Origin: a candidate division WOR-3 bacterium
Lineage (GTDB): Bacteria; Hydrothermota; Tepidihabitantia; B36-G15
Reading direction: 5' to 3'
Assembly (NCBI GenBank): GCA_003645615.1
Contig: QNBE01000002.1
Location: forward strand, 1 to 43,366
Length of the DNA stretch: 43,366 nucleotides
Below the pieces are notes generated by a model. The model saw only the letters and a program-made list of their open reading frames with translations, was not told the origin of the DNA and made no database searches. Position numbers and translations under genes: made by a program. This document shows, piece by piece, positions 11,634 through 43,366 of the stretch (position 1 is the first letter of the stretch; every line of letters begins with the position of its first letter).

Positions 11634-14255
11634 TTAAAACCTGATTCTGGTAGCAAAACCAAACTGATAGTCTGGTCCGAGCTCCGGGTGGTGAGAACCC
11701 TGGTAGGTAACCCCGACCGTCGAGTTCTCACCCAGCTTCCTTTCCATCCCGATCCGATAGTTGGCCGAAAGTCCTGGAGGATAGCTGAGGGCGAAAAAAC
11801 CCATGATGAGAGGGGCATAGATATAAGAGAGTTCTAAACCACCATCCAGTCGATAATTCTTCAAAGACAGCGTGAGATCGGTCCCCAGCATTGGATTGTC
11901 GAGGACAATCTCACCTATTTCGGGAAAATAAGCCGGACTCTCGGCCCAGATCCGATCATAACCGATGTAGCAATCCAGGCCAACCCTCCCATAGATTGCG
12001 GCCTTGAGCTTCCCTCCCCACTTTATTATCTCCTGGATGATCGCACCATCTTCGGTCTCAAAGGATCGGTAGAAGCGGAGAAACGGACCGACCTTTCTGG
12101 CCTCGGTAAGATAGCGATGAACTCCAGTCTCAAGATCTAGTTCCGAGCCATCGAAGTTGGTATTACGATCCTCCCGTTGGTGATAGGAGAAATTGAGGCT
12201 GGGTTCTACCACCTCTCCCGGGTAGGTCATATCTCCGGTTAATTTGAGATCGGAATCGAGGTCATCCCGGGTGCCGAGAAGGTCGAGACTGACCATCTCA
12301 TGGTGGAGATAGACCCTTAGCGAATAACATCGGGAGATATCATACCGATCGAGATAGTGGATCTTCCGGATATAGTCGCCTCTCGGATCATAGATATATC
12401 GCCCGGTTAGGGTATCAAGCCGGTAGTTGCCCTCACCCGGCTTTACCTTCATATAATACTCATCATATCTCCGCCTCAATTCATAATTCATCGCAAATCT
12501 GGTCGAAAGATAGATGGGCCGGATGAGCTCCCCTCCAATAGAAAGAAGGTCCCAGCTTCTCGCTTCCCACCGGTTTCGGAAGAGAGTCAGCTCCGGGCGA
12601 AAGGGACCGAACTGCGGGGAGAGGAGGAAGGAGATCTCCCGACCATTACCCAATGTGTCGGTCATAAGCCGATATCCGAGCTTGGCGATCTCCCCTCTTC
12701 TGATACCAAACCCGATGATCCTCCGCTCATCCTCGGTTAAAAGCTCCATCCCAGGGGTAAGGAGTCCCAAGGGATATTCCAGCTTACTTAGGAATCGGTA
12801 CCGATTCAGGAAACGGGTATAGGATAGAGTGCCGTAGGCAGAGTTGATCCTCACCATCCCCCGGGGCCAGCGGCGGTTGAGGATTCCACCGGAGCCGATG
12901 ATCTCACACCCTCCGGTTTGGAACCTGATCCCGGCCTCGTAACGGCTCCTCACCTCCTCAAGACTGTCCATCCCCCATCGATAGATAAGATCGTAATCGT
13001 AGCGGAGAGGAAAATGGTAATTTTCATCACGAGTCAAGAAATTGGCAAAGAAGATTCCAGATTCAACCCTCCCGCCGATACCGAATCCGGTCCTCTTTGG
13101 ATCGCGGTTGGAATAGAGGTTACCATCGGTGAAAGAGAGCGAGGGCTCGAGGGCGAGGTGGATCGGCCCAAACCCCTGGTCGGTCCGATAATAGATGAGC
13201 CCTTCCCGAGCTGGGGGTCTGATCTTCACCTTCGCCACATAGTCGCCACCACTTTCCACCCAGCGGTAGGCGTGGATCTCCTCATCATAGCGGTAATCGC
13301 CTTTTCCTTCACCAACATAAGTAAACCGGACCCGATAATCACCTTTTCCAAAACCGGCAAACTCGTAGTGATCACCAACCTTATGATAGTCTCCTCCAGT
13401 CAGGGTATCTCCCCCATCGATCCAGATCAGGGTATCACCACTCCTTTCCAGAAGTTCAATATCTTGGGGATCGAGATCGATCCCGATCGGCCGGTCCTTA
13501 TTCTCCACCTCGGTGATGAATCCAATCCGATGCTTACCATGGTCTACCCCTCCAAAGCCAGATAGTTTCAGAAACTTCAAATCCCCAGAGAGATACTGGA
13601 TCTCGATCCGATTTATTGGGGTCACCGGCCGTTTTGGGGTGAAGGTGATCTCACCATTCTCATAATCAATCAGATAGTCAACCCCTTTCTCAAGCGGGAT
13701 CCCATCAAAATAGACCGTCTCACTACCGGGTATGATCCCTTCGGGATCGATCGAATAGGGTCCCTGATGGGCCTCGGCCTTGATCCTTTTGTAGCGATAG
13801 TGGCCCCGGGCAACCGATAATCCCCCTTCAATCGGTCCCACTCTCAATCGGCCTCCAATCCCGGCCTGATTGTGATCACCCACCAAAAGATGATGAGGAA
13901 AGTAGAGATCCCCAAAATCGCCACTCCCCCAAGGTGCCTGGAAGCCCAACCTGGTATTTTCAACCTCAAACAGTGGTCTGGTAATCTCCCCCTTCCCTTC
14001 CTCATCGGCGATCGATCCCTCGATCATCACGTCCTTTGTCTGACCACGAAAATTTACCCACATCCCCTGATCGAAGATAAGGCCATCCCGACCATAGGAG
14101 ATGGTGAAGGATTTGGTTCCCGCCATCACCATCTCCCCACCCGATGTTATCTCGAGCTCCCGTTCATAAATGTTGGTATCGATCGGAAGATAGCGATAGT
14201 AGATCGAGTCGAGTCCGGTCTCAATCAGTGAGAAGACGGAGATGAGAATTATCAT
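11634..14255 (-). CDS. Large outer-membrane beta-barrel protein with SprA-like GSE..DY.IDY..G motif
   Basis: 873 aa, alternating beta-strand pattern, C-terminal Phe (FGFATRIRF), motif IIPGSETVYFDGIPLEKGVDYLIDYENGEITF. Confidence 0.65.
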   Translation of the reverse strand: MIILISVFSLIETGLDSIYYRYLPIDTNIYERELEITSGGEMVMAGTKSFTISYGRDGLIFDQGMWVNFRGQTKDVMIEGSIADEEGKGEITRPLFEVENTRLGFQAPWGSGDFGDLYFPHHLLVGDHNQAGIGGRLRVGPIEGGLSVARGHYRYKRIKAEAHQGPYSIDPEGIIPGSETVYFDGIPLEKGVDYLIDYENGEITFTPKRPVTPINRIEIQYLSGDLKFLKLSGFGGVDHGKHRIGFITEVENKDRPIGIDLDPQDIELLERSGDTLIWIDGGDTLTGGDYHKVGDHYEFAGFGKGDYRVRFTYVGEGKGDYRYDEEIHAYRWVESGGDYVAKVKIRPPAREGLIYYRTDQGFGPIHLALEPSLSFTDGNLYSNRDPKRTGFGIGGRVESGIFFANFLTRDENYHFPLRYDYDLIYRWGMDSLEEVRSRYEAGIRFQTGGCEIIGSGGILNRRWPRGMVRINSAYGTLSYTRFLNRYRFLSKLEYPLGLLTPGMELLTEDERRIIGFGIRRGEIAKLGYRLMTDTLGNGREISFLLSPQFGPFRPELTLFRNRWEARSWDLLSIGGELIRPIYLSTRFAMNYELRRRYDEYYMKVKPGEGNYRLDTLTGRYIYDPRGDYIRKIHYLDRYDISRCYSLRVYLHHEMVSLDLLGTRDDLDSDLKLTGDMTYPGEVVEPSLNFSYHQREDRNTNFDGSELDLETGVHRYLTEARKVGPFLRFYRSFETEDGAIIQEIIKWGGKLKAAIYGRVGLDCYIGYDRIWAESPAYFPEIGEIVLDNPMLGTDLTLSLKNYRLDGGLELSYIYAPLIMGFFALSYPPGLSANYRIGMERKLGENSTVGVTYQGSHHPELGPDYQFGFATRIRF

Positions 14256-14895
14256 CTATGACGAGCAAGCCCTTCCTTACCGGAAGGAGGGATTGGATCG
14301 TAACCGGGAGGGACAGCCGATGCCAGCTTCCTTCATAATACTTATAGAGATGCTCCTCATCATAGGCAAAGATGGTATCCGATTTGATTACCCTAAGATT
14401 CGGTTCCGGCAGAGGAATCACCGAATCGACCTCAAAGAGTGGGTTTAAAAAGATGATCCGTTTCCGATCGTAGAGATAGAACCCATCCTCATAGCCACAC
14501 CCAACGATCCGTCCGATTCCGGGAAGGATTGACCGACCATCGAGCAGGACCCTCTCGCCCCAATCAACGACGGTCATCACCCTCCCCTCATCATCACAAC
14601 TGAGATCGACAATACCCTCCCCTTCCCGATAGAGCCTTAGGGAGAGGTCGCTCCTCCTCACCCGATATACCCTCCGGCCATCTCCAAGATAGAGGAAAAA
14701 TCGATCACCATCGAGATAGCGGATCCGAAATCCGGTTGGTAGGGAGAGGAGAAGGGGACGAAAGTCGAGGCTTTCCGATTCCGACTCGTAGAGTCGTTGA
14801 TCATAAGTGAGGTAGAGATTGGTTCCATCTGAGAAGAGATGGTCGGCCCGGTAGGGGAAGAGGGTAATAACCGGCAGGATCAGAATCAGCGCCAT
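14221..14895 (-). CDS. Hypothetical exported protein, possibly beta-propeller-like
   Basis: Short hydrophobic N-terminus; repeated short strands (DGTNLYLT, DRFFLYLGDG, DGFYLYD). Confidence 0.6.
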   Translation of the reverse strand: MALILILPVITLFPYRADHLFSDGTNLYLTYDQRLYESESESLDFRPLLLSLPTGFRIRYLDGDRFFLYLGDGRRVYRVRRSDLSLRLYREGEGIVDLSCDDEGRVMTVVDWGERVLLDGRSILPGIGRIVGCGYEDGFYLYDRKRIIFLNPLFEVDSVIPLPEPNLRVIKSDTIFAYDEEHLYKYYEGSWHRLSLPVTIQSLLPVRKGLLVIDDNSHLRLLTD

Positions 14896-14904
14896 CGAAG
14901 GGGA

Positions 14905-15525
14905 TCAGAATAGGGCGCGGAAGAATTCGATCAGAAACTTCAATCTTCCGATAAAGAGGCTCACCCGCGCCATCACCGTATACCCGAATGATGCTCCAAA
15001 ACCGATCATGATGAAGATGATCCCGAGCCGTGAGACACGACCGATCGCCCCTTTATGTTCCGTCGAGAAGAAGAAGTAGGTGAGTGTGGCAACGACCCCG
15101 ATCAGGATGATGGTTGCCCAGATACCCGAACTTACCTGGGGCTGAAAACTCTGGGGGGTGAGGATCGTCCCATGGAGTTGTTTCAGGATATTGGCCTGGA
15201 AATAGGCCGGGATCGAAACCCCGGCTCCCCAACCGATCAGAAAGGCTATCGGGAGCCGGGCCAGCCAGGAGATCCTTTTGACAAACATCGTGAAGTATAG
15301 AAGGCCCAGGACCATCGGGATGAGGAAGATATACTGGCCACGACCCAAGGGGTCGAAGAGGTTGGGCCTCAGGGCATTATGCCAGGTGATGGCAATGAGA
15401 TAGCCATTTGAGATCCCAACATAGAGATGTTCGGCAAAACGGAAAAGGGGATTATCCTTATAGAGGAAGGAGAGGATGAAGAGGGTAAGGAGGGCAGCGG
15501 CAATATTCCAGGGATTGATGATCAT
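14905..15525 (-). CDS. Uncharacterised integral membrane protein (module gene 3, ~6 TM)
   Basis: SFLYKDNPLFRFAEHLYVGISNGY, TLTYFFFS, IMIGFGASFGYTVMAR. Confidence 0.8.
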   Translation of the reverse strand: MIINPWNIAAALLTLFILSFLYKDNPLFRFAEHLYVGISNGYLIAITWHNALRPNLFDPLGRGQYIFLIPMVLGLLYFTMFVKRISWLARLPIAFLIGWGAGVSIPAYFQANILKQLHGTILTPQSFQPQVSSGIWATIILIGVVATLTYFFFSTEHKGAIGRVSRLGIIFIMIGFGASFGYTVMARVSLFIGRLKFLIEFFRALF

Positions 15526-16382
15526 CTCCGCCTCAGATAGAAGTAACCGATATTACCGATAACGATGAAGACGATCATAACCAGATGGGCGAGATTCTGG
15601 GCATCCATTCCCGGTGCCGCGGTCTTCTTCTTAATCGGAATATTGTGCTCATCCAGGAGGGTCTCATACTCGGCCGCCCCTTTCAGACCAGCCAACATCC
15701 CCACCAGCTGTCTGGTCTGGAGATAAGGGTAATAGCTTGCCCCCATCACCGCTGTTACCCCGGCCCCAACCCTGAGGCCGTATCTTGATCCCGCATAGGC
15801 AACCCAGGTGTCTGGAAATGCTGCTCCAGAGAGGGAGATACAGAGGCCGATCTGCCGATAATTTTTGATCCCCTCCATCACCTCGAGTTCGTCGATCGGA
15901 TTACCATAATAATCCTTGGGATAGACCCCCTTGATACTCTCCCCCATCCCCAGGATCACCGCAACATATCCCGACTTCCATCCCAAGAAGACATAGTCGC
16001 GACCGTAGATGATGCTATCCTCACGACTCCGTGCCCGTTCATTATACTCGGCCGCGATCCGATTGAAGACATCAACGGCCATCCCGGTTCCCTGGACATT
16101 GAGACAGAGGCCGATCACCTTCCGCCGGAGGGCGAAGAGGTGGTGGACCAAGGCATAGGCCATCGGGTGAACCTCGGGCATCACCTGGGGATCATAATCG
16201 AAGGAGATCATTACTGCCCGACCCCGAGTCGAGTCCTCGATAAAGGTAAAGAGATCCCGAGATCGATCCATCACATTGACCGGAATCCCCCACGGCTTGA
16301 GCAGGGGGAGGAGGATGGCCAATCCCAGGACGAAATAGATAATCCTCCGATCGATCTTGGTGAGCCGCTCAAAGATACTCAT
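15522..16382 (-). CDS. Uncharacterised membrane protein with soluble alpha/beta domain between terminal TMs (module gene 2)
   Basis: [59 protein letters not shown]. Confidence 0.8.
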
Positions 16383-17595: not shown

Positions 17596-17596
17596 A

Positions 17597-18805
17597 TCAG
17601 TACTCCTCAATTACCCATTCGGGCAGATAGCGATCCCAGTCCGGAAAACCGGGATCATCCTTAGAGTTGGACCAGACCAGACGATAGTCGCCATCTCCGT
17701 AGAGATCCATGAAGATGAAATGGAGTCCACTCGCATAATAAACCCAGTGCTGGATCGGCTTCAACTTCTCCTCAAAAGTTTTACTCACCGTCTCATCGGG
17801 TGGGCCATATTTGATATAGATCCGCCCTCGGTCGGTCTTCCAGCCCGCCTTTGTCCCGGCCTGAAAGTGCTCGTTGGCATAAGAGACTCTCCTCTGGTAG
17901 TTTTGGAAGAGATCGGATCTCTTAAACTTATCGATATAGGCCTTCCTTTTTACAAGGTCCATCTTCCGATAACGTTCGTATTCTCTGGTCCCGAGTAGGA
18001 CCTTGATGAGCTCGTCATATCGCCCGCTCACCCTGATCCCCTTACCACCAACGATCTGGAAGGGACGGGAACGGCTCACCTTCTCTCCTTTGGTTGAGTC
18101 GTAGACGGTTACCTTTAGAGTATAGCTCCCCGCCTTCAAACCGGCAAGATCGATCCCGATCACCTCATTCTGAGCGGAAAAGAGCTTTTCAGCCTTTTTA
18201 TGAAGGATCTTAATCGACCGATTGGTGCTATCAAGTATCTCAAAGGTTGCCCGGTAATAGCTACCGTCCGGCTTGAGATTGTATAGTTCGAAGTAGGGAA
18301 AGATGACCCGCCATCTTCCCCCGAATCTTGAAGAGGGGTTCGGGACCACCACCAGGCCGAATTTGGTGAACGGGGTTTGAGCAGTATCGGCCTCGGCCTT
18401 TATTGCCAGTTCCAGATCAGAAATGGTGAGATGTTCCCTGTCGATCGGAGCTAAGTGGATCTTACCGCCTCTGGCTTCAACCTTAGTGGAACAGATAATG
18501 GTCACCTGATACTGGTATTCTCCAGGAAGGAGGATATAGTTATGTTGATCGACAAAACTGAGATCACGCTCCTTAGCCTGACGGAACGATCGAATCACCG
18601 CCTTCTTTGTCAGGGTATCGGCAAGCAGAAGATCAGATCCCTTTATCTCAAAGATTACCTGGTAGCGAGAAACCAGCTCATCACCAACATTCCGGTAGAT
18701 GAGCTCATGGTAGGGGATCTGATAGTAGATCTCGGTCCGATAAACCCGACCCCGGTAGGGGAAGGCGGCATAATCGACGAAGAAACTGAAAAGAAGAATG
18801 ATCAT
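17597..18805 (-). CDS. GWxTD domain protein
   Basis: RVSYANEHF...GWKTDRGRIYIKYGPPD. Confidence 0.9.
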   Translation of the reverse strand: MIILLFSFFVDYAAFPYRGRVYRTEIYYQIPYHELIYRNVGDELVSRYQVIFEIKGSDLLLADTLTKKAVIRSFRQAKERDLSFVDQHNYILLPGEYQYQVTIICSTKVEARGGKIHLAPIDREHLTISDLELAIKAEADTAQTPFTKFGLVVVPNPSSRFGGRWRVIFPYFELYNLKPDGSYYRATFEILDSTNRSIKILHKKAEKLFSAQNEVIGIDLAGLKAGSYTLKVTVYDSTKGEKVSRSRPFQIVGGKGIRVSGRYDELIKVLLGTREYERYRKMDLVKRKAYIDKFKRSDLFQNYQRRVSYANEHFQAGTKAGWKTDRGRIYIKYGPPDETVSKTFEEKLKPIQHWVYYASGLHFIFMDLYGDGDYRLVWSNSKDDPGFPDWDRYLPEWVIEEY

Positions 18806-19860
18806 ATCCCACTCCCTTCGGGATAGAGTAGCTCATACCTTCCGAAACCGTAACGGTCGATGAAGATGAACTTCAGATTCCGATTATAATAATACCAGAT
18901 CTCATAGGCCCGGGTTGCTGCCTCAAAGGGATGGCTTTCGATCTCATCGGGTGGACCATATTTGATATAGATCTTCCCCCGATCGCTCCGCCAACCGAGA
19001 TCGCCCATCTTGAAATTCTCCTCCGCATATCTAATCCGGGCGAGATACTCCTCCTTCAGCTCATTCTCCTCGGTGCCCGGTGTCGGATCACGACTCTTCC
19101 AGAACTCTTCATAGGCCTGGCGTCGCTTCTTGGGATCCCTTATCTTCTTCATCCGGCTCAGTTCCTCGGGGGTGGCGATATACATCAGTTGATCCACCGC
19201 TTCATTATACTTAGCATCTGAAAAATAGAAAGGGACGGTTAGGTGAAATTTGAGGATATCTTCCTCCCGATCATAACCGAAGGCAGTGAGCCGAAGCTCA
19301 TAATCACCCTCTTTAAGCTCACTTAGGGGGAGCAGGATGGTATCGATACCGGGGTTAACCGGGTGAGAGCTCTCCCTTCTCAAGGTCCTTCCATCCCGAA
19401 CGATGGCGTAGCTTAGGGAGTCGAGCCGGGTACGGATGGCGAAGATAAGCAGGACCGTGTCGGTGATGTTGAACTCTCCAGCCACTACCTTCCCATCCTT
19501 CTCAAACCTGATTCTCTCCAAAAGAAGAGAAGGATTTACTCGGCGCTGGGCGGAAAAGATCCGGCCCATCTTCTCCGCCAGTACCACGATCTGGAATCCG
19601 GAGGCCCGAGGGGGGATGGGGAGGGCAATCGAGTCATAATAGGTCCTCAATGTTCCCCGGACCGTCTTCTGCCAGAAGTCACCACCAAGTCGATCCCTGC
19701 CATCCTGGAAGGTGAGCTCAATCTCATAGGAGGCCCGCCACTCTCCATCTTTAATAAAATGGAGCTCATCCCGATCGATCGAATAGATGATCGAAAGCCA
19801 CCTCTTACCATCAACCCATTTCTCGAAATGGCTGAATCGAAAGGCGATGAGAATAATCAG
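18802..19860 (-). CDS. GWxTD-family (GWxSD variant) protein, probable non-canonical start
   Basis: FWKSRDPTPGT.ENE, RIRYAEENF, GWRSDRGKIYIKYGPPD; frame stays open 70 codons upstream of the track's TTG 19650 to a CTG overlapping the lon TGA. Confidence 0.85.
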   Translation of the reverse strand: MIILIAFRFSHFEKWVDGKRWLSIIYSIDRDELHFIKDGEWRASYEIELTFQDGRDRLGGDFWQKTVRGTLRTYYDSIALPIPPRASGFQIVVLAEKMGRIFSAQRRVNPSLLLERIRFEKDGKVVAGEFNITDTVLLIFAIRTRLDSLSYAIVRDGRTLRRESSHPVNPGIDTILLPLSELKEGDYELRLTAFGYDREEDILKFHLTVPFYFSDAKYNEAVDQLMYIATPEELSRMKKIRDPKKRRQAYEEFWKSRDPTPGTEENELKEEYLARIRYAEENFKMGDLGWRSDRGKIYIKYGPPDEIESHPFEAATRAYEIWYYYNRNLKFIFIDRYGFGRYELLYPEGSGI

Positions 19861-22696: not shown

Positions 22697-23980
22697 ATGA
22701 GTAAATACCCGAAATGGCTGATCCCTCTTTTTATTATTGCCACCTCCTGTGGCAAGGGGATCGGCATCCCCGAGCTCTTAGATCCCACCGGTGGAGAGAC
22801 GGTCTCATTGCCGGTGACCTTTATCTGGACATCGGTCGAGAATGCCAAAGGCTATGCGATTGAGATCGACACCACTACCGCCTTTGAGAATCCGATCATC
22901 TCGGCCGAGGTGGACGAGACCACCCATACGGTCACGAATCTCGATACATTAAAGTATTACTGGCGGGTCTCCTCCATCGATGAGAATGGAGAGAAGGGAG
23001 ACTTCTCCGATCCAGACTCATTCATCGTCCAGGGCAGCGCCTATCCCAGAAATCTCATCACCACCATCCAGCTCCCCGGTGAATACCCGGCGACGATCGA
23101 TATCACACCGGATGGCTCCGAGTTATGGGTCGGTTACTGGGGCCAGACCGATACCATCGTCACGGTGATCGCCACCGCCACCAATCAGATTACCCATGAG
23201 ATCACAACGACGAATCCCGGTAATGACCTGGGTGAACTCCGGATCTCCGCCGATGGCAACCATGCCTACTTCTGCGGGGTCTGGGATATGGACAGTTCCG
23301 GCCTCATCGAACTCTCGACCTCAAGCTATCGCCAGATCAGGATGATGGGTTATCCCTCCGGTTCTCCTCCGGTTAAGCAGGGGCCGGATGGCCCGGGCAT
23401 CGCTCTGGGTAAGGACTATGTCTATGCAGCTCACATGGCAACGGTAGATGACGGCTATATCACCAGGATCGATCTTGCCAGTGGATCCCCGATCGACAGT
23501 CTCCATATGAGCTGGATCGCCGATGTCGATCTCAATCACGCCGGGACCAGACTCTATGCGGTGGGGGAAGAAGATTCGCTCTATGAAATTGACCCCGCCA
23601 CCCTCACTGTAACCAGACAGATCGGAGTCGGCTATGCTCCTCACCGTCTGGTCATCACCGGTGATGATCGCTATGCCTTTGTCACCGGTGACAGCATCTA
23701 TGTCGTCGATCTCAACACTTTCACCGTGGTTAAGAAGTTCGATCCCGACATCTCCGCCGAAGGGCTGAAGCTCACCCCAGATGAGAACTATCTTTATATT
23801 ACTGATGGTGGGAGCAACTATATCGATATCTATGATGTCTCTGATCCGACCGATCCTACTCTGGTAGAAAAGCTCCAATTTCCTCAGGCCGGATCATTCA
23901 ATGAGCTTGTCTTCAACAAGGATGGCTCTCGCGCCTACATCATCGAGGAGAGTGGAGATATCTTTGTCTTGGGCAAGTAG
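22697..23980 (+). CDS. Lipoprotein with Fn3-like domain and YVTN/YncE-type beta-propeller
   Basis: Lipobox ATSC; YYWRVSSID (Fn3-like); repeats ITPDGSELWV, ISADGNHAY, LNHAGTRLYA, ITGDDRYAFV, FNKDGSRAY; AGGAGGT RBS. Confidence 0.85.
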   Translation: MSKYPKWLIPLFIIATSCGKGIGIPELLDPTGGETVSLPVTFIWTSVENAKGYAIEIDTTTAFENPIISAEVDETTHTVTNLDTLKYYWRVSSIDENGEKGDFSDPDSFIVQGSAYPRNLITTIQLPGEYPATIDITPDGSELWVGYWGQTDTIVTVIATATNQITHEITTTNPGNDLGELRISADGNHAYFCGVWDMDSSGLIELSTSSYRQIRMMGYPSGSPPVKQGPDGPGIALGKDYVYAAHMATVDDGYITRIDLASGSPIDSLHMSWIADVDLNHAGTRLYAVGEEDSLYEIDPATLTVTRQIGVGYAPHRLVITGDDRYAFVTGDSIYVVDLNTFTVVKKFDPDISAEGLKLTPDENYLYITDGGSNYIDIYDVSDPTDPTLVEKLQFPQAGSFNELVFNKDGSRAYIIEESGDIFVLGK

Positions 23981-24717: not shown

Positions 24718-24723
24718 TCTTTG

Positions 24724-25953
24724 ATGCCGACAATTCTCATCTTTACCACCATCTTTATCGCCCGGTTCAAAGGGCCGATCGGACCGGTTGCTGCCGACTA
24801 TCTCACCGGAGCGATCGAGCTGGCCCAGGACGGTAGCTGTCTCATTATCGAACTGGATACCCCGGGTGGAGATGATCAGTCAATGCGGGAGATCATCCAG
24901 GCGATTCTAAATGCTCAAGTCCCGGTCTGTGTCTATGTCTACCCCTCTGGAGCTCGGGCGGCATCAGCCGGTGCCCTCATCCTCCTTGCCTCTCATATTG
25001 CGGCTATGGCACCGGGGACCAATGCTGGGGCCGCCCACCCGGTCCAGATGTTTGGTGAGAAGATCGATTCGATCATGCTCGAGAAGGTGACCAACGATGC
25101 TGCCGCTTATGCGATATCCCTTGCCGACCGGAGGGGGAGGAACCGGAGGTGGGCTGAAGATATCGTCCGCAAGAGCATCTCCACCCCGGCTCGAGAAGCG
25201 GTTAAGATCGGCGCAGTCGATCTTCTGGCTGGAAGTGAAACAGATCTGATTGAGAAGCTTGATGGGTATGAGGTGAAGGTCGATAATGAGAAAAAACGCA
25301 TCACCACCAGGGATGAACCGATCCATAGAATTCCGATGTCGGTAAAGCACAAATTCCTCCTCATTCTTACCAATCCCGGTATTGTCTACTTCCTGCTTTT
25401 GATCGGGATTTATGGTATCTTCTTCGAGCTACAGAATCCCGGAGCGATCTTTCCCGGTGTAGTCGGTGCCATCGCCTTCATCCTCTTCTTCTATGCCTCA
25501 CGCCTCCTGCCGATCAACTATGCGGGTGTTGCCCTGATTATCCTGGCCGCGATCCTCTTTATCTTAGAACTTCAGATCACCTCCCATGGTCTCCTCACCG
25601 TTGGTGGAATCATCGCCTTTGTCCTCGGTTCGATTATGCTCTTCGAATCCGATGTCCCCTATCTTAGGACCTCAATATCCCTTATCATCTTTGCCACTGT
25701 TGTCACCGGCCTCTTCTTTCTACTTATTGTTGGTCTTGGGATCAAGGCCCAGTTCAGGAAGCCCCAGACCGGTAGAGAAGGGATGGTCGGCCTGATCGGA
25801 GTAGCCAAAACCAGGATCCGGCCGACCGGAACCGTCCTGGTCCACGGTGAATTGTGGCAGGCAGAAAGTGATGAGGTGATCAAACCAGGCGAAAAGGTCA
25901 TCGTTGTGGAGATGAAGGAGGGGATGGTCCTGAAGGTTAAGAAGAAGGCGTGA
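24724..25953 (+). CDS. Long-form NfeD membrane-bound ClpP-like serine protease
   Basis: ELDTPGG, ARAASAG, AMAPGTNAGAAHPV, TM bundle, C-terminal OB-fold (GTVLVHGELWQAES). Confidence 0.93.
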   Translation: MPTILIFTTIFIARFKGPIGPVAADYLTGAIELAQDGSCLIIELDTPGGDDQSMREIIQAILNAQVPVCVYVYPSGARAASAGALILLASHIAAMAPGTNAGAAHPVQMFGEKIDSIMLEKVTNDAAAYAISLADRRGRNRRWAEDIVRKSISTPAREAVKIGAVDLLAGSETDLIEKLDGYEVKVDNEKKRITTRDEPIHRIPMSVKHKFLLILTNPGIVYFLLLIGIYGIFFELQNPGAIFPGVVGAIAFILFFYASRLLPINYAGVALIILAAILFILELQITSHGLLTVGGIIAFVLGSIMLFESDVPYLRTSISLIIFATVVTGLFFLLIVGLGIKAQFRKPQTGREGMVGLIGVAKTRIRPTGTVLVHGELWQAESDEVIKPGEKVIVVEMKEGMVLKVKKKA

Positions 25954-26618
25954 TCATCCTCCTCTTCCTCCTCCCGATTACTGATTCGATCGCACCAGCC
26001 GATCCGGTTGCCGGAGATGGAAGGTGGCGGATCGGCCTTCTCATTGAGAATCGCTTTCTGCTCAAAGAGCTCTCCGGTAGCAAGCTCTCTCTCTATGGAA
26101 GGGGCTTCCGTTTCTTGGTCTCCGGTTTTGGACTCGGCCCCCTCCAGATCTACCAGCTTAGGATTGCCTACTCTTTCTCTCTTATCGAACCGCTTGATCT
26201 CGGCTATGGTATTGCCACCCATCTCTACCGGTTTGACGATGGCAACTCCCATCTCGGTCTCGGGATCGATCTCGGTCTCGGTTATACCGATGAGCTCATC
26301 ACCGTTCGACTCTCCTCTCTCGATCTCAACCGACCCCGGCTCACCCCAATCGATGAGATCCGCCCGGGATACCACCTCAAGCTCAGGGTAGGAAAGAACC
26401 CCCAATTTCATTTCAAACTCACCCATCGGACCAATTTCAGCATCTACTCCGGATTCACCCTATCCCTCCCCCCGCCCCTCTCGCTCTCCCTCGGTTTTAA
26501 TACCGAACCGAGGGAGCTCTCATTTGGGTTCTCCATTATTACCAGACCGGAGATCTATTACACGGGATCGATCCACTCCACCCTTGGCCTCTCCCACCAG
26601 ATCGGGATCAGGATATGA
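25950..26618 (+). CDS. Hypothetical OM beta-barrel-like protein
   Basis: Short hydrophobic N-terminus, amphipathic strands, ENRFLLKEL and HSTLGLSHQIG motifs; coupled to neighbours. Confidence 0.6.
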   Translation: MIILLFLLPITDSIAPADPVAGDGRWRIGLLIENRFLLKELSGSKLSLYGRGFRFLVSGFGLGPLQIYQLRIAYSFSLIEPLDLGYGIATHLYRFDDGNSHLGLGIDLGLGYTDELITVRLSSLDLNRPRLTPIDEIRPGYHLKLRVGKNPQFHFKLTHRTNFSIYSGFTLSLPPPLSLSLGFNTEPRELSFGFSIITRPEIYYTGSIHSTLGLSHQIGIRI

Positions 26619-28252
26619 GCCTCCTATTCATCTTTCTCACCCTTGAGGAGCTGGAGTTGGAGCGGCCCATCGAGGAGTCCTCCTACCTCACCCAGCTCGA
26701 GTATCTTGCTCAGCATCCGATTGATCCCAACCAGGCCAAGATCGAGGACTGGCTTCTGATCCCTTTCATCTCGCCGGTTGAGGCCTACCGATTGGTTGAA
26801 GGAAAGGGGAGCTATCAGAGCCTTGAGGATCTGAGGCAGGCCGGTCTCGACCGGGACCGGATCGCAATGCTCAGACCTTTTGTCCGGATCGGGAAAGAGA
26901 TCAAAAGGTCCCACTCCGATATCCGGCTCCGTTATCAGCTCTTCAATCCAGAATCCTTATCCGATTCTCGACTCTATACCCGAACCCAGTTCCAAGGCGA
27001 GAAAATCCGGCTCTTCCTCACCACGGAGAAGGATCCCTATGAGCGCTCCTACCTCGACTATCTGGGCGGTGGTATCCTGATCAGGCAGGGAAGACTTACG
27101 GGCGCTATTGGCCGCTATCATCTGGAACTGGGGGAAGGTCTTCTCCTCGGGCCAGAACCATTCGACTTTCTCAGGGACTATGACTTCCAATCGCCCCGGC
27201 GGGGTATCATCCCTTATCCAGGGGTTGGTGAGAATTACGGCCTCTTCGGGGTCGCCCTCTCCTATCGAGGGTTTATCGGCTTCTATTCCAATTATCGGCT
27301 CGATGGATCGGTTCGCAACGATACCATCCGTGGGATTGACTATCAAGGTCTCCATACCGATTCTGCCTCTTTGGCCAATCGGGATCGGCTAAGAGAGGTT
27401 GTCTATGGCCTTGGCTATCAACTCGGTCTCGGAGACGATATTATCGGGATCAAGGGCTATCGGCTCCGATATCGACCCGGGATCTATCCGGAAGATTCCC
27501 TCCCTTTCTATGGCGAGGATTTGAATCTCTGGGCCATCGATCTTCGCCGCTATGGTCACCTGGGTGAGCTCTTCTTCGAAGGCGGTTTCTCGGGCCGAAG
27601 CTTTGGTCTCATCGGCGGTTTTATCGCTCGAATCGGTGAGCTCGGTCTCTCCGGAACCTGGAGCCACTACCCACCAGATTTCTACTCCCCCCATGGTGGG
27701 ATCGTCGAACCGGGAAGGGATCTTCTAACCGCAAATATCGGGCTTATAAGATCCGAGTATCGGATTGGTCTAAGGAGTTGCTATCGATATCGGATCGATG
27801 ATGAGAGCGAGTATTATGATCTGAGGCCATACCTCAACTACCACCTCCCACCATTCCGTTCGGAGTTAGAACTCCGCTATCGATTCGGTTCCATCCCGAG
27901 CTATGAACGGGGAGCTTCCTTCCGATTCACCTATCGGCTCTCTAAGCTAAGGCTGAGGCTCCGGATTGTGGATCGGACCTATCCGGATGAACCCACCGGT
28001 CTCTATGGAGGGGTAGAGATCACCATCTTCCACCGTTATTACCGTCTCACCCTCGGCTACGGCCGATATTCTGCTCCCGGACCTATCTATATCTATCAAC
28101 CCGATCTTCCAGGAAGATTTAATACCTTGGTTCTCTCCGGATCAGGTCAGGAGTATTATCTTATCATCGGACTGAAACCATTAATCGGGATGAAATTCTA
28201 TCTCAAACTATCAAACCGGGTCTTCGGGCTTCAGACCGACCTTACTTTCTAA
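26615..28252 (+). CDS. ComEA-like helix-hairpin-helix domain fused to a beta-barrel
   Basis: PIDPNQA..EDWLLIPFISPVEA..LV...GSYQSLEDL (HhH), EKDPYE, GRYHLELGEGLLL; C-terminal Phe. Confidence 0.75.
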   Translation: MSLLFIFLTLEELELERPIEESSYLTQLEYLAQHPIDPNQAKIEDWLLIPFISPVEAYRLVEGKGSYQSLEDLRQAGLDRDRIAMLRPFVRIGKEIKRSHSDIRLRYQLFNPESLSDSRLYTRTQFQGEKIRLFLTTEKDPYERSYLDYLGGGILIRQGRLTGAIGRYHLELGEGLLLGPEPFDFLRDYDFQSPRRGIIPYPGVGENYGLFGVALSYRGFIGFYSNYRLDGSVRNDTIRGIDYQGLHTDSASLANRDRLREVVYGLGYQLGLGDDIIGIKGYRLRYRPGIYPEDSLPFYGEDLNLWAIDLRRYGHLGELFFEGGFSGRSFGLIGGFIARIGELGLSGTWSHYPPDFYSPHGGIVEPGRDLLTANIGLIRSEYRIGLRSCYRYRIDDESEYYDLRPYLNYHLPPFRSELELRYRFGSIPSYERGASFRFTYRLSKLRLRLRIVDRTYPDEPTGLYGGVEITIFHRYYRLTLGYGRYSAPGPIYIYQPDLPGRFNTLVLSGSGQEYYLIIGLKPLIGMKFYLKLSNRVFGLQTDLTF

Positions 28253-28685
28253 AGTAGAAACGGGCCCCAATCCCACCTTCGAGATCGAAATCGGTCTCGG
28301 GGACCAGATCCATAACCGGATAGAGCTCACCGAAGAAGCCAAACCGTTGATAGATATATTCGATACCGATCCCAAATCGAGCCCCGAGATTGAACTCCCA
28401 CTCCTCCTCCTTGGTCCTCTTCATCTTCAGCCTACCGCCAAGGCCGAGATAGGGGTACCAGTTTGGCTCCTGGATCCACTCCGGAAAATGGAAGAGATAA
28501 TCGGCAACCAGATGGATTCGCTCCCGAGTGAAGGACCAGCCGATGCCAAAGTCGATTGCGTTTATCTCGGTAATCCAGCTTTTGAAACTGAGCCCGGTCG
28601 GTTCTCCCAAGATGATTCCCACCCCGATGGGATAGGCAGTAGTGATGAGGCCAAAGATTAGAATGATGGTAAAGGTTCTCATCAT
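28242..28685 (-). CDS. Small OM beta-barrel protein (DUF3996-like)
   Basis: GVGIILGEPTGLSFK, ADYLFH, YLGLGG, GGIGARFYF. Confidence 0.7.
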   Translation of the reverse strand: MMRTFTIILIFGLITTAYPIGVGIILGEPTGLSFKSWITEINAIDFGIGWSFTRERIHLVADYLFHFPEWIQEPNWYPYLGLGGRLKMKRTKEEEWEFNLGARFGIGIEYIYQRFGFFGELYPVMDLVPETDFDLEGGIGARFYFRK

Positions 28686-32906: not shown

Positions 32907-33630
32907 AGAGATCACCGATTCGGTTTCGTTGGAGGGCCCGCCCCCGTGGGCCATCGAAGGTGATCTTTCCCCTTTTCATCAGGAGGAGACGGGAAGAGGA
33001 TGGTGGGATATGGGAGAGGATATGGGTGACGAAGACGATGGTGATCGACCTTTCGAGATAGATCTGCTCGATCAGATCGAGGAGCTCATACTGGGCCCGA
33101 AGATCAAGATTTGAGGTCGGTTCATCAAGGAGGAGAATCCTCGGTTCTTGGGCGAGCGCTCTGGCAATCTGAACCTTCTGGAGCTCACCACCGGAGAGGT
33201 GGCCAATCGGCCGTAGGCTAAAGTCTTTGATTCCGGTCAAGGCCATAACCTCATCGACGATATCTTCATCCCGAGATGAGAGGCGGTGGATGAGTCCGAC
33301 CTTGCCGAACCTTCCGATCCGGACCACATCCCGGACACGGATTGGCATCCTGGGATCGAGATTCAAGATCTGAGGCACATAGCCGATCTCCTTTCGAATC
33401 TCGCCAGCACGGGAAGGGGTGAGACGGATCCCAAAGATCCATACCTCCCCTCCCCTTATCCTCCCCAGACCATTTATTGTCGTCAGTAGGGTCGTCTTTC
33501 CCGCCCCGTTGGGACCGAGCACGGTGACAAATTCACCCTCATCGATCTGGAGGTTGATCTTAGTAAGAACCAGATCCTTCTGATAAGCTACCGAGACATC
33601 CTTTAATCTAATGATGGCTGAGGCATTCAT
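32875..33630 (-). CDS. Metal ABC transporter ATP-binding protein (ZnuC-like)
   Basis: GPNGAGKTT, IGYVPQ, LSGGELQ, LLLDEP, FVTH. Confidence 0.95.
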   Translation of the reverse strand: MNASAIIRLKDVSVAYQKDLVLTKINLQIDEGEFVTVLGPNGAGKTTLLTTINGLGRIRGGEVWIFGIRLTPSRAGEIRKEIGYVPQILNLDPRMPIRVRDVVRIGRFGKVGLIHRLSSRDEDIVDEVMALTGIKDFSLRPIGHLSGGELQKVQIARALAQEPRILLLDEPTSNLDLRAQYELLDLIEQIYLERSITIVFVTHILSHIPPSSSRLLLMKRGKITFDGPRGRALQRNRIGDLYGIPDHDLPL

Positions 33631-34384
33631 CCAATCTCTTCATATTCTCGATCAGGGTCTGGGGATAGGATTGATCGATCGGGAAATTGGTCAAAACGAG
33701 GTGGTTGATGCTGGCCGCCTCGGCGATGGGGCGGCCAGCATCGGGTCCACTTTGGAGATTGTCGACAACCAATCTCGCTCCGCTACCACGGGCGAGGTCG
33801 ATGAGTCGGGCGAGCTCCTTGGGGGAGAGATCCTCTGGACGACCATAGGTGGCCACCACATCAAAACCGACCCAGGAGAGGAAAGGGGCCTGATATCGGG
33901 CACAGATTACCTTTACCCCTTTGAACTTTGATCGATCAAACTGCTTAACAATTGAATCGATCCTCGCCCGGTAAGACCTCAGATTGGATTGAAAGAGAGC
34001 GCTATCCTCGGGGAAGGAGAGAGAGAGGATGCGGGTTATCACCTCGGCAGCCCGGAGATGGATCTCGGGAACCATCCAGCTCCCTTTTACGCCCACAGTT
34101 TCGATCCTCACTTCGGGCAGGGCTAAGGCAAGTTTCTTAAGCCAGCCCTCAAATCCGTGATTGAGGATGATCTTGGCGTGGGAGAGTCGATCGATCTCCT
34201 TCGGCTTGAGATCGAAATGTCCAGGACACATCCCGGCCGGAACGATTGTGATTGCCTCCACCCGATCCTTCCCAATCGATTTAACGATCGATCCGATCAT
34301 CGATGTTGTTGCTCCAACCGGATATCCCTCTTCCTTCTGGACACAGGAGATGATGAGAAGAGAGAGAAGTAGAATCCTCACCAT
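33608..34384 (-). CDS. Cluster A-I (ZnuA/TroA-like) metal-binding lipoprotein with atypical ligands
   Basis: Lipobox IISC; IVPAGMCPGHFDLKP; fold pattern of TroA-like SBPs. Confidence 0.85.
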   Translation of the reverse strand: MVRILLLSLLIISCVQKEEGYPVGATTSMIGSIVKSIGKDRVEAITIVPAGMCPGHFDLKPKEIDRLSHAKIILNHGFEGWLKKLALALPEVRIETVGVKGSWMVPEIHLRAAEVITRILSLSFPEDSALFQSNLRSYRARIDSIVKQFDRSKFKGVKVICARYQAPFLSWVGFDVVATYGRPEDLSPKELARLIDLARGSGARLVVDNLQSGPDAGRPIAEAASINHLVLTNFPIDQSYPQTLIENMKRLDECLSHH

Positions 34385-36162
34385 CGGAAGTCAAGGCCAA
34401 TGGTAAAGCTGCGGCCGGGCATCTCGTAACATCCAGCTGCACCACCGGGGAGATCGGCATAGATGGCATATTCCTGATCCAGGATGTTTTCGATGGAAAG
34501 AAATGGAACCAGACCGAATCCGAATCGGAAGGAGAGGTTCAGGTTGATGAGGAGATAATCATCGATCCGATCCATACTGCTGTCGGCGGCAAAGTAATTG
34601 GTGACATACTGACCCATGAGGCCGATCCGGATGGGCTGGAAATCCCCACTCAGGGAGATACCAAACTTATCCTTGATGCGCCCCCTCGTCTTCTCACCCG
34701 GGTCGAGATGGGAGTAGTTGATCTCTCCCTTGAGCTTTCGGTGGTCGATCCGGAGCGAGATCTCGCTCCCATAAAAACGGAAGGAGTCGGTATTCTGGAA
34801 GCGGAACTTAGGTGGTGGGGAGGGGTTGGGGGCAAGTTCGATCAGATTCTCACCATCCATCAGAAAACCGACCAGATCGAAACTCAATGGTCCGAAGAGG
34901 TGTTGAGAGATCCCGACCTCATAGTTGGTGACGAACTCTGCCTTAAGATCGGGATTGGAGGGGGGGAACATATAGAGCTCATTGAGCTGAGGCGAACGAA
35001 AACCTCGACCTATCGATCCCCTGATGATCGTTCCACTCAAAATCGGCCAGACCAGCCCAGCTCTGGGGACGAATACCCGACCCGAGATCTCATCCCAGTT
35101 GATCCTACCTCCAACCGTAGCAATGAGTTTATTAAGAATCCGCTGCTCATCGTGGGCAAAGATGCCGATCTCATACTTGCTCCAGGAACCGGTCCCGATC
35201 CACTCACCGAGCTGACGCCGGTATTCGACCCCGACCATGAGCTCATTGGTATTGGTAATACGTCCGGTGAGATGGCCGATCATGCCATAGGTCGAATCCT
35301 TCGACTTCCAGCCATCAGAGAACTCATGCCTACCAAAATTGAGATAGGACTTGATCATCCCTCTATACCTCTGCCATCGCCCATCGATCGATAGGTCGAT
35401 CGCCCCCCGCCGATACCGATTCCAGACATCGGACTCAAGGGTCTCGGGATCGGTCACCCGTTTTGGCTCCTCCTTATAACCATCAAAATATTTGGCCGAG
35501 AGTGAGGCCCTTAGCCCGGGTAGAAGCTGGTAGCCGATCCGCCCGGTGAAGTCTTTGCCCGAATAGGCAGAGTTTTCCAGATGGCCATCGCTCTTCTCGT
35601 AGTCTCCGGTCAGAAAGTAGTCGAACTCTCCGATCCGACCGCCATGGCGGAGCCGGAGCTGCTGGGTCTGATAGCTCCCATAGGCGAGCCTGAGGTCGGT
35701 AGTAAATCCGGATTCTACCCGCTTGGTTATGATGTTGACCACACCCCCGAGGGCATCGGAGCCGTAGAGGACCGATGCCGGTCCCCGGACGACTTCGATC
35801 CGTTCAACATTGTTGAGGGGAAGGGAGTGGGTCACGGTGCAACCGAAGAGTCCCATCTTGACCGGACGGCCATCGACTAAGACCATCACCTTCCTCCCCC
35901 GATCACCAAGCCCCCGGATATCGATATCAGACCGGCCAAAGGATCCGGTCTTTTCGATGAATACTCCGGGAAGGAAGGAGAGGAGATCGGGGGTGGTATG
36001 GACATACCGGGAGGAGATCTCCTCCTCGGTCAGGACCGATACCGTTGCCGAGAGATCCTTTATCGCCCGCTCACTCCTGGTTGCGGTGACGACGATCTCC
36101 TCCAGCTTATACACCTTCAGGGTATCGGGAAAAGCAAGCAGGATGATAATCAATCCAAACAT
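34378..36162 (-). CDS. TonB-dependent outer-membrane receptor
   Basis: LEEIVVTATR, IDIRGLG, VLVDGRP, VERIEVVRGPASVLYGSDALGGVVNIITK, ENILDQEY...PGRSFTIGLDFRW; ATG 36162 with GGAGGT. Confidence 0.95.
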   Translation of the reverse strand: MFGLIIILLAFPDTLKVYKLEEIVVTATRSERAIKDLSATVSVLTEEEISSRYVHTTPDLLSFLPGVFIEKTGSFGRSDIDIRGLGDRGRKVMVLVDGRPVKMGLFGCTVTHSLPLNNVERIEVVRGPASVLYGSDALGGVVNIITKRVESGFTTDLRLAYGSYQTQQLRLRHGGRIGEFDYFLTGDYEKSDGHLENSAYSGKDFTGRIGYQLLPGLRASLSAKYFDGYKEEPKRVTDPETLESDVWNRYRRGAIDLSIDGRWQRYRGMIKSYLNFGRHEFSDGWKSKDSTYGMIGHLTGRITNTNELMVGVEYRRQLGEWIGTGSWSKYEIGIFAHDEQRILNKLIATVGGRINWDEISGRVFVPRAGLVWPILSGTIIRGSIGRGFRSPQLNELYMFPPSNPDLKAEFVTNYEVGISQHLFGPLSFDLVGFLMDGENLIELAPNPSPPPKFRFQNTDSFRFYGSEISLRIDHRKLKGEINYSHLDPGEKTRGRIKDKFGISLSGDFQPIRIGLMGQYVTNYFAADSSMDRIDDYLLINLNLSFRFGFGLVPFLSIENILDQEYAIYADLPGGAAGCYEMPGRSFTIGLDFRW

Positions 36163-36173
36163 CACACCTCCTG

Positions 36174-36200
36174 GTGACACGAATCTGAAAAAAGTAACAC
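36174..36200. promoter_or_regulatory. Imperfect palindromic operator GTGACAC-N13-GTAACAC (NikR-like candidate)
   Basis: Lies between the -10 box and RBS of the TonB/ABC operon. Confidence 0.55.
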
Positions 36201-36352: not shown

Positions 36353-36355
36353 TAA

Positions 36356-36474: not shown

Positions 36475-36480
36475 GTTTTA

Positions 36481-37638
36481 GTGCTGATATCTCTCTTGTT
36501 TGGCCTCAGCATTACGGACTTCCGTCCTCCGAGTAGTCGAGTATATGGTTGGGAACTGAATGGCGGCTTCCACCATCTCCGGAGTAACCATGGGGATTTC
36601 TCATCCCATCTCTACTATTATCTGGAGAGTGACACGATCGAATTCTCTATTTCCGGGGGAGGATCGTACTCCTATTCCACCTTCGATTCTAGCTACCAGG
36701 CGGATCTGTCCAGTAGGGTTCAAATCCGCTCCTACCTCTCCAACTCACCTTTCTTTATCGGTGGTATGGTGAGAGGGTCATCCCAGTGGGATCGTATCTT
36801 TGGAGAGGAGTATCGTTACCACAGTTTCGATCTTACCCTTAGCAGTGGGGTTGGCCGGATCAGGGATGGGATCTATGTGGTCCGAGCCCTTGCGATCAAT
36901 AAGATCCTCCTGACCGAAGGGGTGATCAGCCAAGAACTCAAGCCCGAGACCATCCTCGCCCTGGCCCAACTCCTCTCCCAACGCACCTTCTTTCTGCTCC
37001 GCTACGAACGCTATTTCAAATACCTTGCCCAGAGGGTCGAATCGATCCTTGAAAAAGATCCGGCCTATAAGGGTAAGATCTCCGGCTACTGCTGGTTTAA
37101 GATCTTCGAACTTGCTGACAATATCTACTACCGGGGCCTCTATGAACTAATCGAATGGGAACGGAGATTTGGGATCAGATTGAGCTTGGATCTCAGTGCA
37201 GGGGGTATCACCAAAGGAAGGAGCGGGGACCGGGTCGGATTGGGGATCGATGATCTCTATGGTTATCCCGAAATCGGGGTTACCTTGGAGTATGGCTATC
37301 CCATCGATCTTTCCCGCCAGCTCTCATTTACCGCCTCTTACACCTTGAGCTTTGTTGATACCATGACCTCCCATTATTGCCAGCTCAGGTTTGCATATGG
37401 CTATGGGATAATTGATCGCTATCTCATTCAGCCTCAGTTTGCTGTGGGTAATAGCTGGCATATCAGGGAGGGAAGGGGCGATTGGGAATGCTGGATCTCT
37501 CCAGGGATAGGTTTCTATTTTTATCTTGAGGACCGGATCTCCTTTGAATCTAAAGGGGATATCACCTTCTATCGAGATCGGACCGGATGGAGTGGGAGTA
37601 CCTATTTAAGGCTTGGGGTTGACCATCGAATATTTTAG
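36481..37638 (+). CDS. Hypothetical OM beta-barrel protein with central helical insertion
   Basis: Amphipathic strands flanking a helical segment (GVGRIRDG...WFKIFE); C-terminal Phe. Confidence 0.65.
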   Translation: MLISLLFGLSITDFRPPSSRVYGWELNGGFHHLRSNHGDFSSHLYYYLESDTIEFSISGGGSYSYSTFDSSYQADLSSRVQIRSYLSNSPFFIGGMVRGSSQWDRIFGEEYRYHSFDLTLSSGVGRIRDGIYVVRALAINKILLTEGVISQELKPETILALAQLLSQRTFFLLRYERYFKYLAQRVESILEKDPAYKGKISGYCWFKIFELADNIYYRGLYELIEWERRFGIRLSLDLSAGGITKGRSGDRVGLGIDDLYGYPEIGVTLEYGYPIDLSRQLSFTASYTLSFVDTMTSHYCQLRFAYGYGIIDRYLIQPQFAVGNSWHIREGRGDWECWISPGIGFYFYLEDRISFESKGDITFYRDRTGWSGSTYLRLGVDHRIF

Positions 37639-37642
37639 GCAT

Positions 37643-37715: not shown

Positions 37716-37739
37716 TACAGACTGTGAAAGGAGGTGACG

Positions 37740-42974: not shown

Positions 42975-42981
42975 ACCCTCC

Positions 42982-43055
42982 TGGGCGGTAGAGGGGTCGA
43001 ACCTCTCACCTCTGGTATGTGAGACCAGCGCTCTAACCAGCTGAGCTAACCGCCC
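42982..43055 (-). tRNA. tRNA-Val(CAC)
   Basis: GGGCGGT/ACCGCCC acceptor stem, CTGGT-CT-CAC-AT-ACCAG anticodon arm, GGTTCGA; CCA not encoded. Confidence 0.95.
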
Positions 43056-43061
43056 GGAAAA

Positions 43062-43090
43062 AATATAACCGGGCTTATATGAACCGTCAA
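43062..43090 (-). promoter_or_regulatory. tRNA-Val promoter TTGACG-17-TATATT
   Basis: Hexamers at 43085-43090 and 43062-43067. Confidence 0.65.
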
Positions 43091-43200
43091 GTTTTTATCC
43101 GGCCCTGAAGGATGGGGAGAGTGGTTGTGTAAAGCGAGGAAAGATCCTCTTGATGTATGGGGATGATTGGGATAGAATATAGGGTAGGAAGGAGGTAGAA

Positions 43201-43366
43201 ATGGTAATACTACTTTTACCTCTGGCGACATGGATGTTCACACCCTGGGATAGTGCCCCTACCCCCCCCCAAGACCGAAGTAGACTTCTCCCGGGACCGA
43301 TTCGTGGTCCTTAGTAATACCTTAAATGGTGTGGAGTATCAGGACACCACGGTCAACGGCATCACC
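43201..43366 (+). pseudogene. 5' part of a probable secreted-protein gene frameshifted at a C9 tract
   Basis: Promoter-like TTGATG-17-TAGAAT (43150-43178), AAGGAGGT RBS, ATG 43201 MVILLLPLA; in-frame stop at 43312-43314, while the +1 frame after the C9 tract (43262-43270) is open to the window end. Confidence 0.55.

Follow-up and report, generated by a model that had tools for sequence, protein, structure and literature searches.

We analyzed a 43,366-nt stretch of DNA (the window) from a candidate division WOR-3 bacterium, contig QNBE01000002.1 of GenBank assembly GCA_003645615.1. The window is contig C2 of the source genome G000, a metagenome-assembled genome (MAG) of 2.23 Mb in 186 contigs with 51% GC, and all of the evidence presented here is sequence inference on such MAGs. 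The window encodes a set of envelope proteins, among them a TonB-dependent receptor, an NfeD-type membrane protease, two GWxTD-domain proteins, and several outer-membrane-protein-like (OMP-like) proteins, that begin with a short hydrophobic stretch directly after the initiator Met and have no Lys or Arg ahead of it. These uncharged N-termini, which we consider as candidate export signals, are the subject of this work. See Table 1 for the coordinates and N-termini of the window features. The initial annotation stated that the three lipoproteins of the window keep basic n-regions, and Lys or Arg is present in all three; two of these are listed in Table 1 as contrast cases, together with a small OMP-like protein that has a conventional signal.

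Table 1. Features of the window, with N-termini and start-site context
Feature	Coordinates	Strand	Remarks
Large (Alu-domain) signal recognition particle RNA	9121..9381	minus	Rfam RF01854, 144 bits, full length; directly upstream of dnaX
873-aa OMP-like protein	11634..14255	minus	N-terminus MIILISVFSL, then IETGLD; ends ...RIRF; stop immediately upstream in frame; no Pfam match
224-aa protein	14221..14895	minus	N-terminus MALILILPVI; in-frame stop 4 codons upstream; no Pfam match
402-aa GWxTD-domain protein	17597..18805	minus	N-terminus MIILLFSFF; Pfam PF20094, E 2e-11; ATGA overlap with stop of upstream gene
Second GWxTD protein	18802..19860	minus	Pfam PF20094, E 3e-16; first canonical start TTG 19650
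Lipoprotein (contrast case)	22697..23980	plus	Lys-containing n-region, MSKYPKW...SC
NfeD-type membrane protease	24721..25953	plus	N-terminus (M)MPTILIFTT; Pfam NfeD1b_N, NfeD_membrane, NfeD
222-aa protein, no known family	25950..26618	plus	N-terminus MIILLFLLPI; GTGA overlap with NfeD stop
545-aa OMP-like protein	26615..28252	plus	N-terminus MSLLFIFLTL; ends ...TDLTF; ATGA overlap with stop of upstream gene
147-aa small OMP-like protein (contrast case)	28242..28685	minus	Conventional MMRTF... signal
dnaN	28682-29788	minus	
dnaA	29993-31348	minus	
Lipoprotein (contrast case)	33608..34384	minus	Arg in n-region, MVRILLL...SC
TonB-dependent receptor	34378..36180	minus	Likely start ATG 36162 (MFGLIIILLAF); Pfam Plug and TonB_dep_Rec barrel
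385-aa OMP-like protein	36481..37638	plus	N-terminus MLISLLFGLS, GTG start; ends ...HRIF; stop 11 codons upstream; no Pfam match
37-aa open reading frame, doubtful as gene	43201..43314	plus	Begins MVILLLPLA; contig edge

The open reading frames of the window were listed as the longest reading from the first ATG, GTG, or TTG after a stop; therefore, the listed N-termini are already maximal. Ten short N-termini had been put forward in the initial annotation. Eight of these are exact and cannot be extended, while the one at 19860 needs a CTG start and the one at 43201 belongs to a 37-aa reading frame. The nearest in-frame stops are 0–38 codons upstream, and no ATG, GTG, or TTG lies between them and the listed starts; three of the starts are stop/start overlaps. 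Because the eight N-termini are bounded upstream in this way, no basic n-region can be gained. The longest of these upstream stretches, the 38 open codons ahead of 26615, contains no ATG, GTG, or TTG. The NfeD gene has a TTG at 24721 before the ATG at 24724, which adds one Met only, and a stop 11 codons upstream. The TonB receptor start at ATG 36162 has an AGGAGG sequence 5 nt upstream, and the alternative GTG at 36180 adds only MSPGGV, without Lys or Arg. From ATG 36162, LEEIVVTATR starts at residue 20–21, which agrees with the earlier claim that the TonB-box region begins about 20 residues in. The second GWxTD gene has its first ATG, GTG, or TTG at 19650, but an open, protein-like frame extends from 19899 or earlier. 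A CTG at 19860 overlaps the stop of the Lon gene (CTGA) and would give (M)IILIAFRF. This CTG is probably the start of the gene, i.e., a non-canonical initiation codon.

Of 30 relatives in the same class, 29 have homologues of the 873-aa OMP-like protein, and short, mostly uncharged N-termini are seen at 11 loci related to it. Its gene is translationally overlapped with that of the 224-aa protein of unknown family (11634-14895, minus strand). For the 222-aa protein, only two database matches reach E ≤ 0.001, and one is the identical sequence. The five listed proteins without a Pfam match mostly end in an aromatic residue. Outer-membrane barrels end in an aromatic residue.

Next, we examined how common such N-termini are in the genome as a whole. 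Genes were called with a home-made finder using codon log-likelihood and greedy overlap resolution, which gave 1869 genes at 88% coding density (table 11). A gene was counted as secretory-like if an 8-residue window with a mean Kyte-Doolittle value of at least 2 and no D, E, K, or R lay within 35 residues of the farthest start, with no later transmembrane (TM)-like segment. The uncharged class was defined by no possible Lys or Arg, a hydrophobic window from residue 2, no later TM segment, a length of at least 100 aa, and a closed 5′ end. In G000, 523 of 1769 genes with a closed 5′ end are secretory-like; 171 of these have no Lys or Arg possible, and 137 have the window from residue 2. The same class contains 1/293 genes in a 400 kb sample of E. 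coli K-12. It contains 12/324 in a genome of the same class (G019), and 7/175, 12/151, and 7/106 in members of other families of the phylum (G035, G072 with a GC of 38%, and G069, respectively). Family f15 of the same phylum comprises G036, G042, G048, G053, G058, G063, G067, G071, G075, and G079; uncharged signals were sampled in G063 (0/170) and G067 (0/75). Two genomes labelled Edwardsbacteria gave 0/154 (G081, also labelled UBP2, GC 54%) and 2/74 (G082), and both of the latter resemble cytoplasmic glycosyltransferases. Fisher tests of G000 against E. coli, f15 (0/245 pooled), and G081 returned p values from 1e-5 to 2e-8. The excess of uncharged N-termini in G000 is far above chance. The original statement that most envelope proteins have such N-termini is true within the window, but the genome-wide share is approximately a quarter to a third.

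The uncharged type is found on the TonB receptor, BamA, a second Omp85 protein, a SurA-like protein, and a DegP-like protein. C-terminal Phe, Trp, or Tyr is present in 31 of the 137 proteins, compared to 8.9% of all genes. G000 also has at least 150 matches to the C-terminal sorting domain of the type IX secretion system (T9SS; TIGR04183), roughly 7–8% of its genes; C151:1255-1473 and C64:11883-12083 are examples. Of these genes, 115 were mapped and are closed at the 5′ end. The uncharged type accounts for 26 of them, 5 more are uncharged but have a longer n-region, 53 have a short n-region with Lys or Arg, 18 have Lys or Arg only from the farthest start, and 13 are without an N-terminal hydrophobic window. 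Three genomes labelled Edwardsbacteria/UBP2 have 65–70 T9SS sorting-domain matches each. A lipobox-like pattern was seen in only 2 of 171 uncharged N-termini compared to 30 of 239 N-termini with a short Lys/Arg n-region, i.e., 30 of 32 lipobox proteins keep Lys or Arg. Lipoprotein (signal peptidase II) signals were rejected on this count as an identity for the uncharged N-termini. Tat (twin-arginine) signals were rejected as well, as the class definition excludes any Arg or Lys ahead of the core.

The uncharged N-termini have a consistent anatomy. Position 2 is Ile in 45%, positions 3–9 are mostly Leu, Ile, and Phe, and these three residues make up 67% of residues 2–9. The hydrophobic core has a median length of 9 residues, as it does in E. 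coli, while it is 11 in the Lys/Arg signals of G000. The core ends at a median of residue 10, compared to residue 14 in the Lys/Arg signals of G000, which are also short, and the first strongly polar residue (DEKRNQH) is found at a median of ~12. The best 8-residue window has a mean Kyte-Doolittle value of 3.19 in the uncharged class, 3.17 in the Lys/Arg signals of G000, and 2.69 in E. coli (uncharged versus E. coli, p = 1e-7). Relative to E. coli cores, the uncharged cores contain more Ile and Phe and less Ala. The residue right after the core is Gly, Ser, or Thr in 52%, and 84 of the 137 have an acidic residue as their first charged one (p = 0.01). Conserved mature motifs start 0–3 residues after the core; a canonical cleavage site is 3–7 residues past it, with small residues at -1 and -3. 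Deformylation would leave an α-amino group on Met1, which the initial label of “charge-free” ignores.

Comparison of paralogues and orthologues places the conserved part of these proteins very close to the start codon. In the PGDS(V/I)GW paralogue family, the conserved motif is 11–13 residues from Met in six of eight members. In the PDTLW family, the motif is at residue 14 in the uncharged member versus residue 23–46 in 11 paralogues, most of which have A-x-A and then Q; examples with such canonical endings in G000 are C143:3174, C138:2968, and C74:5662. Overall, the distance from Met to the shared motif is 11–13 residues in uncharged paralogues and 22–32 residues in those with canonical AxA-Q signals. 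BamA has 9–14 uncharged residues before the first POTRA strand in nine genomes (G000, G003, G019, G011, G035, G069, G088, G094, and G097) and an 18–25-residue signal with Lys or Arg in 11 others (G081, G082, G085, G063, G067, G072, G086, G087, G091, G092, and G093). The smaller Omp85 paralogues divide the same way. By tblastn, the residues ahead of the aligned part number 18 in G000 versus 36 in E. coli for BamA, and 10 versus 23 for SurA. Uncharged N-termini recur on orthologues throughout the class, and three further families among those sampled from the phylum have them too. They are absent from the two sampled genomes of family f15 and from neighboring lineages (labelled Edwardsbacteria, Stahlbacteria, TA06, and Cloacimonadota), where BamA has a canonical signal at the same place.

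Taken together, the short N-termini are likely to function as Sec-type export signals with a reduced design that is heritable in the class and in several families of the phylum. The initial annotation had proposed a lineage-specific minimal targeting signal; this proposal is supported by carriers that depend on export and by a distribution shared by the class and three other families but absent from neighbors. The design would consist of Met1, a ~9-residue core of mostly Leu, Ile, and Phe, no basic n-region, and almost no c-region, such that the conserved mature domain would begin 9–14 residues from the start codon. It appears to serve substrates of the signal peptidase I type, i.e., outer-membrane barrels including BamA, periplasmic factors, and T9SS cargo, while lipoproteins keep Lys or Arg. 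The high hydrophobicity of the core would compensate for the missing positive charges. Hikita and Mizushima reportedly found in 1992 that a longer or more hydrophobic core compensates for lost charge. The free α-amino group of Met1 and a mildly acidic post-core flank may keep the N-in orientation. The nascent chain would then be passed to SecYEG, probably by a co-translational route that uses the signal recognition particle (SRP), with SecA assisting. Ordinary signal peptidase I would cleave at a small residue, either where the core ends or just beyond it, at approximately residue 9–14. We speculate that a short core without a charged anchor could sit nearer the outer leaflet, which is the site of peptidase action. 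The fuller claim is that of a signal peptide rewritten across the lineage, in which a 9–14-residue leader suffices for signal peptidase I substrates including BamA and is cut at the core edge, in the class as well as in several families of the phylum including Hydrothermota-labelled MAGs. For this claim, we consider the chances to be even.

Several observations weigh against a reduced Sec signal. Export, cleavage, and route are predicted from sequence for all of these proteins. The gene finder is home-made, and 6 of the 137 N-termini have Rossmann- or P-loop-like Gly motifs that make them look like cytoplasmic false positives; therefore, the true class is somewhat smaller than 137. No sharp -3/-1 motif was seen in profiles aligned on the start or on the core end. 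A permissive small-x-small site is present in 104 of 137, a weak pattern with no null model behind the count. The net charge over the 12 post-core residues is -0.42 in the uncharged class, close to the -0.39 of E. coli and only slightly more acidic than the -0.15 of the Lys/Arg class. In one paralogue, Phe precedes the conserved Gln, and Phe at -1 is not acceptable to normal signal peptidase I. Furthermore, a pre-sequence of 9–13 residues is shorter than any that we know to be cleaved in bacteria. Some of these points would favor N-termini that target the membrane but escape signal peptidase I, whether as an uncleaved anchor, through another protease, or with insertion by YidC or in some other way: a convincing -3/-1 motif is lacking, some sites would put Phe at -1 or Pro at +1, and the pre-sequence is unusually short for a peptidase with its active site at the outer face of the membrane. 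We consider such an escape unlikely. A core of ~9 residues is too short for a stable anchor, which needs about 18 or more residues to span, and carriers such as BamA, TonB receptors, and T9SS cargo cannot stay in the inner membrane. The frequency of Gly, Ser, or Thr right after the core and the conservation of signal peptidase I in 61 of 61 sampled genomes of the phylum, as well as in G000, also argue for cleavage.

It is very unlikely that the starts are mis-assigned, with true initiation upstream by a non-canonical codon, read-through, or a frameshift giving a normal basic signal. For one window gene (18802-19860), a start other than ATG, GTG, or TTG does appear necessary, more than 10 open codons lie upstream in 45 of 137 genes, and 15 of 137 could gain Lys or Arg via an upstream CTG, ATT, ATC, or ATA start; these 15 are the only ones that could. 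This explanation is largely refuted by adjacent stops, as an in-frame stop lies within 3 codons in 46 of 137 genes and is directly adjacent in 9. In 63 of 137, the whole open upstream stretch is without Lys or Arg. All three stop codons terminate genes in G000, and the coding density under table 11 is high. Shine-Dalgarno-like motifs precede 40% of uncharged-class starts and 35% of all called starts, compared to 16% of random positions. The same bounded starts are found in orthologues of other genomes, and even the CTG case yields an uncharged hydrophobic N-terminus. That the class is an artefact of composition or gene calling, made up of chance hydrophobic runs or wrong reading frames, is hardly credible despite the home-made finder and the six cytoplasmic-like N-termini, and the controls refute it. 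G081, of similar GC content, has none, and the N-termini persist in low-GC, Lys-rich relatives such as G072. The carriers are long (median 405 aa), have coding potential above the genome median, and hold known export-dependent domains.

We also asked if a special co-evolved machine underlies the uncharged N-termini, as the initial annotation had suggested either the Alu-type SRP or a divergent SecA or signal peptidase I as the reader of these signals. The export genes look ordinary: G000 has signal peptidase I (C20:14511-15086), SecA (45% identical to E. coli SecA), LspA, MAP, SecY, and Ffh, the last with a second hit that resembles FtsY. A search of 12 genomes found SecB in none; as it is missing from all of them, it is uninformative here. 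Eight trait-positive genomes yielded an SRP RNA (G000, G003, G011, and G094-G097, as well as G069), and in all eight it is the full-length large form; five trait-negative genomes match over the small S-domain part only. These findings point toward a special machine, but the full-length large form is also present in G085, G092, and G093, which are trait-negative as judged from one or two Omp85 proteins each. Therefore, an Alu-type SRP does not set the trait-positive genomes apart, and the proposed link was not borne out. No SRP RNA was found in G019, G035, G072, G088, and G089 using RF01854 and RF00169 (and RF01857 for the first three), i.e., 5 of 13 genomes scored as trait-positive or intermediate in an incomplete sample of related, non-independent genomes. 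G086, G087, and G090 likewise gave no SRP RNA match. Signal peptidase I sequences were picked by phmmer, and we aligned 15 of them, drawn from genomes with and without the trait and from E. coli. Every full-length one has a single TM segment beside the catalytic domain and the same spacing, read from the alignment, between it and the GSM serine box. With this shared architecture and TM-to-catalytic-Ser spacing, no adaptation of signal peptidase I is visible, and the suggestion of a divergent peptidase is not supported. Given also the 45% identity of SecA to that of E. coli, we regard a special SRP, signal peptidase I, SecA, or SecY as quite improbable. Family f15 has three signal peptidase I matches per genome, including a short form of ~147 aa, while most other families have one or two.

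The large SRP RNA of the window lies directly upstream of dnaX, an arrangement known from Bacillus. It adjoins dnaX in G003 and G011 too (loci L228 and L229), and the G011 copy has its best Rfam score with the archaeal model RF01857, at 101 bits. The window also contains three tRNAs. The cumulative GC skew has its minimum at ~30-32 kb, where dnaN and dnaA are located (window ~28.7-32 kb), which fits a replication origin near dnaA. DnaA relatives at about 47-53% identity are labelled Candidatus Edwardsbacteria/UBP2, TA06, Hydrothermota, Stahlbacteria, and Cloacimonadota. At the far end of the window, a second open frame follows the 37-aa reading frame and runs off the contig (43201-43366, plus strand); the two frames may stem from a frameshift or from faulty assembly at the edge of the contig.

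The n-h-c signal peptide is among the most general rules of protein sorting, and here approximately 100 or more exported proteins per genome, throughout a lineage, would have no n-region and hardly any c-region left. This would be a natural test of the minimal needs of Sec, SRP, and signal peptidase I, with a clean comparison in the canonical signals of orthologues in sister lineages and in the Lys/Arg signals of lipoproteins in the same cell. If our reading is true, bacterial signal peptides in nature can be as short as about half the textbook length, and the positive n-region is dispensable in nature for non-lipoproteins. A quarter to a third of these secretomes would then systematically escape current predictors and proteomic filters, which demand a minimum of 15 residues with basic ones early on. 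Uncultured T9SS-rich bacteria are usually read through their predicted secreted hydrolases, and we expect that their secretomes and ecological roles are under-called if predictors miss this type. The finding is relevant to both the protein-export field and metagenome annotation, with inference from sequence as its basis. We found no description of the trait in the literature; subscription journals and supplements were outside the scope of this search, which is not proof that the trait is unpublished.

In general, the uncharged N-termini appear to work like a Sec signal peptide but lack one of its defining features, the basic n-region. They share with the canonical Sec/signal peptidase I signal (n-h-c, ~18-30 aa) the N-terminal place, an uncharged core of similar length that lies within the usual ~7-15 residues, the same kinds of carriers, and the same machinery genes. 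Unlike in the canonical signal, the core starts at residue 2 with no n-region, the c-region is ~0-3 residues, and the total is ~9-14 residues. Work in E. coli has shown that Sec export does not strictly depend on a basic residue: in the two model systems described, export continued after the positive residue at position 2 had been removed (PMC2034453). Those charge mutants are laboratory variants of full-length signals that keep the c-region, whereas the uncharged form is here the natural state in approximately a quarter to a third of the secretome, BamA included. A very hydrophobic core is also a feature of the SRP-routed signals of the DsbA type in E. coli. Such a core is reported to divert secretory proteins to co-translational SRP targeting (PMC3981701, PMC9594773), and SRP and SecA are described as cooperating in the export of proteins with highly hydrophobic signal sequences (PMC3981701). 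DsbA-type signals keep Lys and an AxA site, unlike the signals here, for which SRP routing is a prediction.

Two further precedents come from other lineages. A minimal n-domain charge of 0, as in the N-termini described here, is listed for Borrelia, Leptospira, Ehrlichia, and Methanospirillum in Table 1 of a proteomic signal-peptide survey (PMC3509430). As its filter is set out there, the survey required 15-35 residues and early basic residues, and it would therefore be blind to the short uncharged type. The Q-rule of Bacteroidetes is likewise a clade-level departure in signal peptidase I substrates, set among the wider FCB-type, T9SS-bearing bacteria, and is stated not to be valid for the whole FCB group (PMC5837995). 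The Q-rule concerns the +1 residue after cleavage and not the architecture of the signal, and some canonical signals of G000 also end in A followed by Q.

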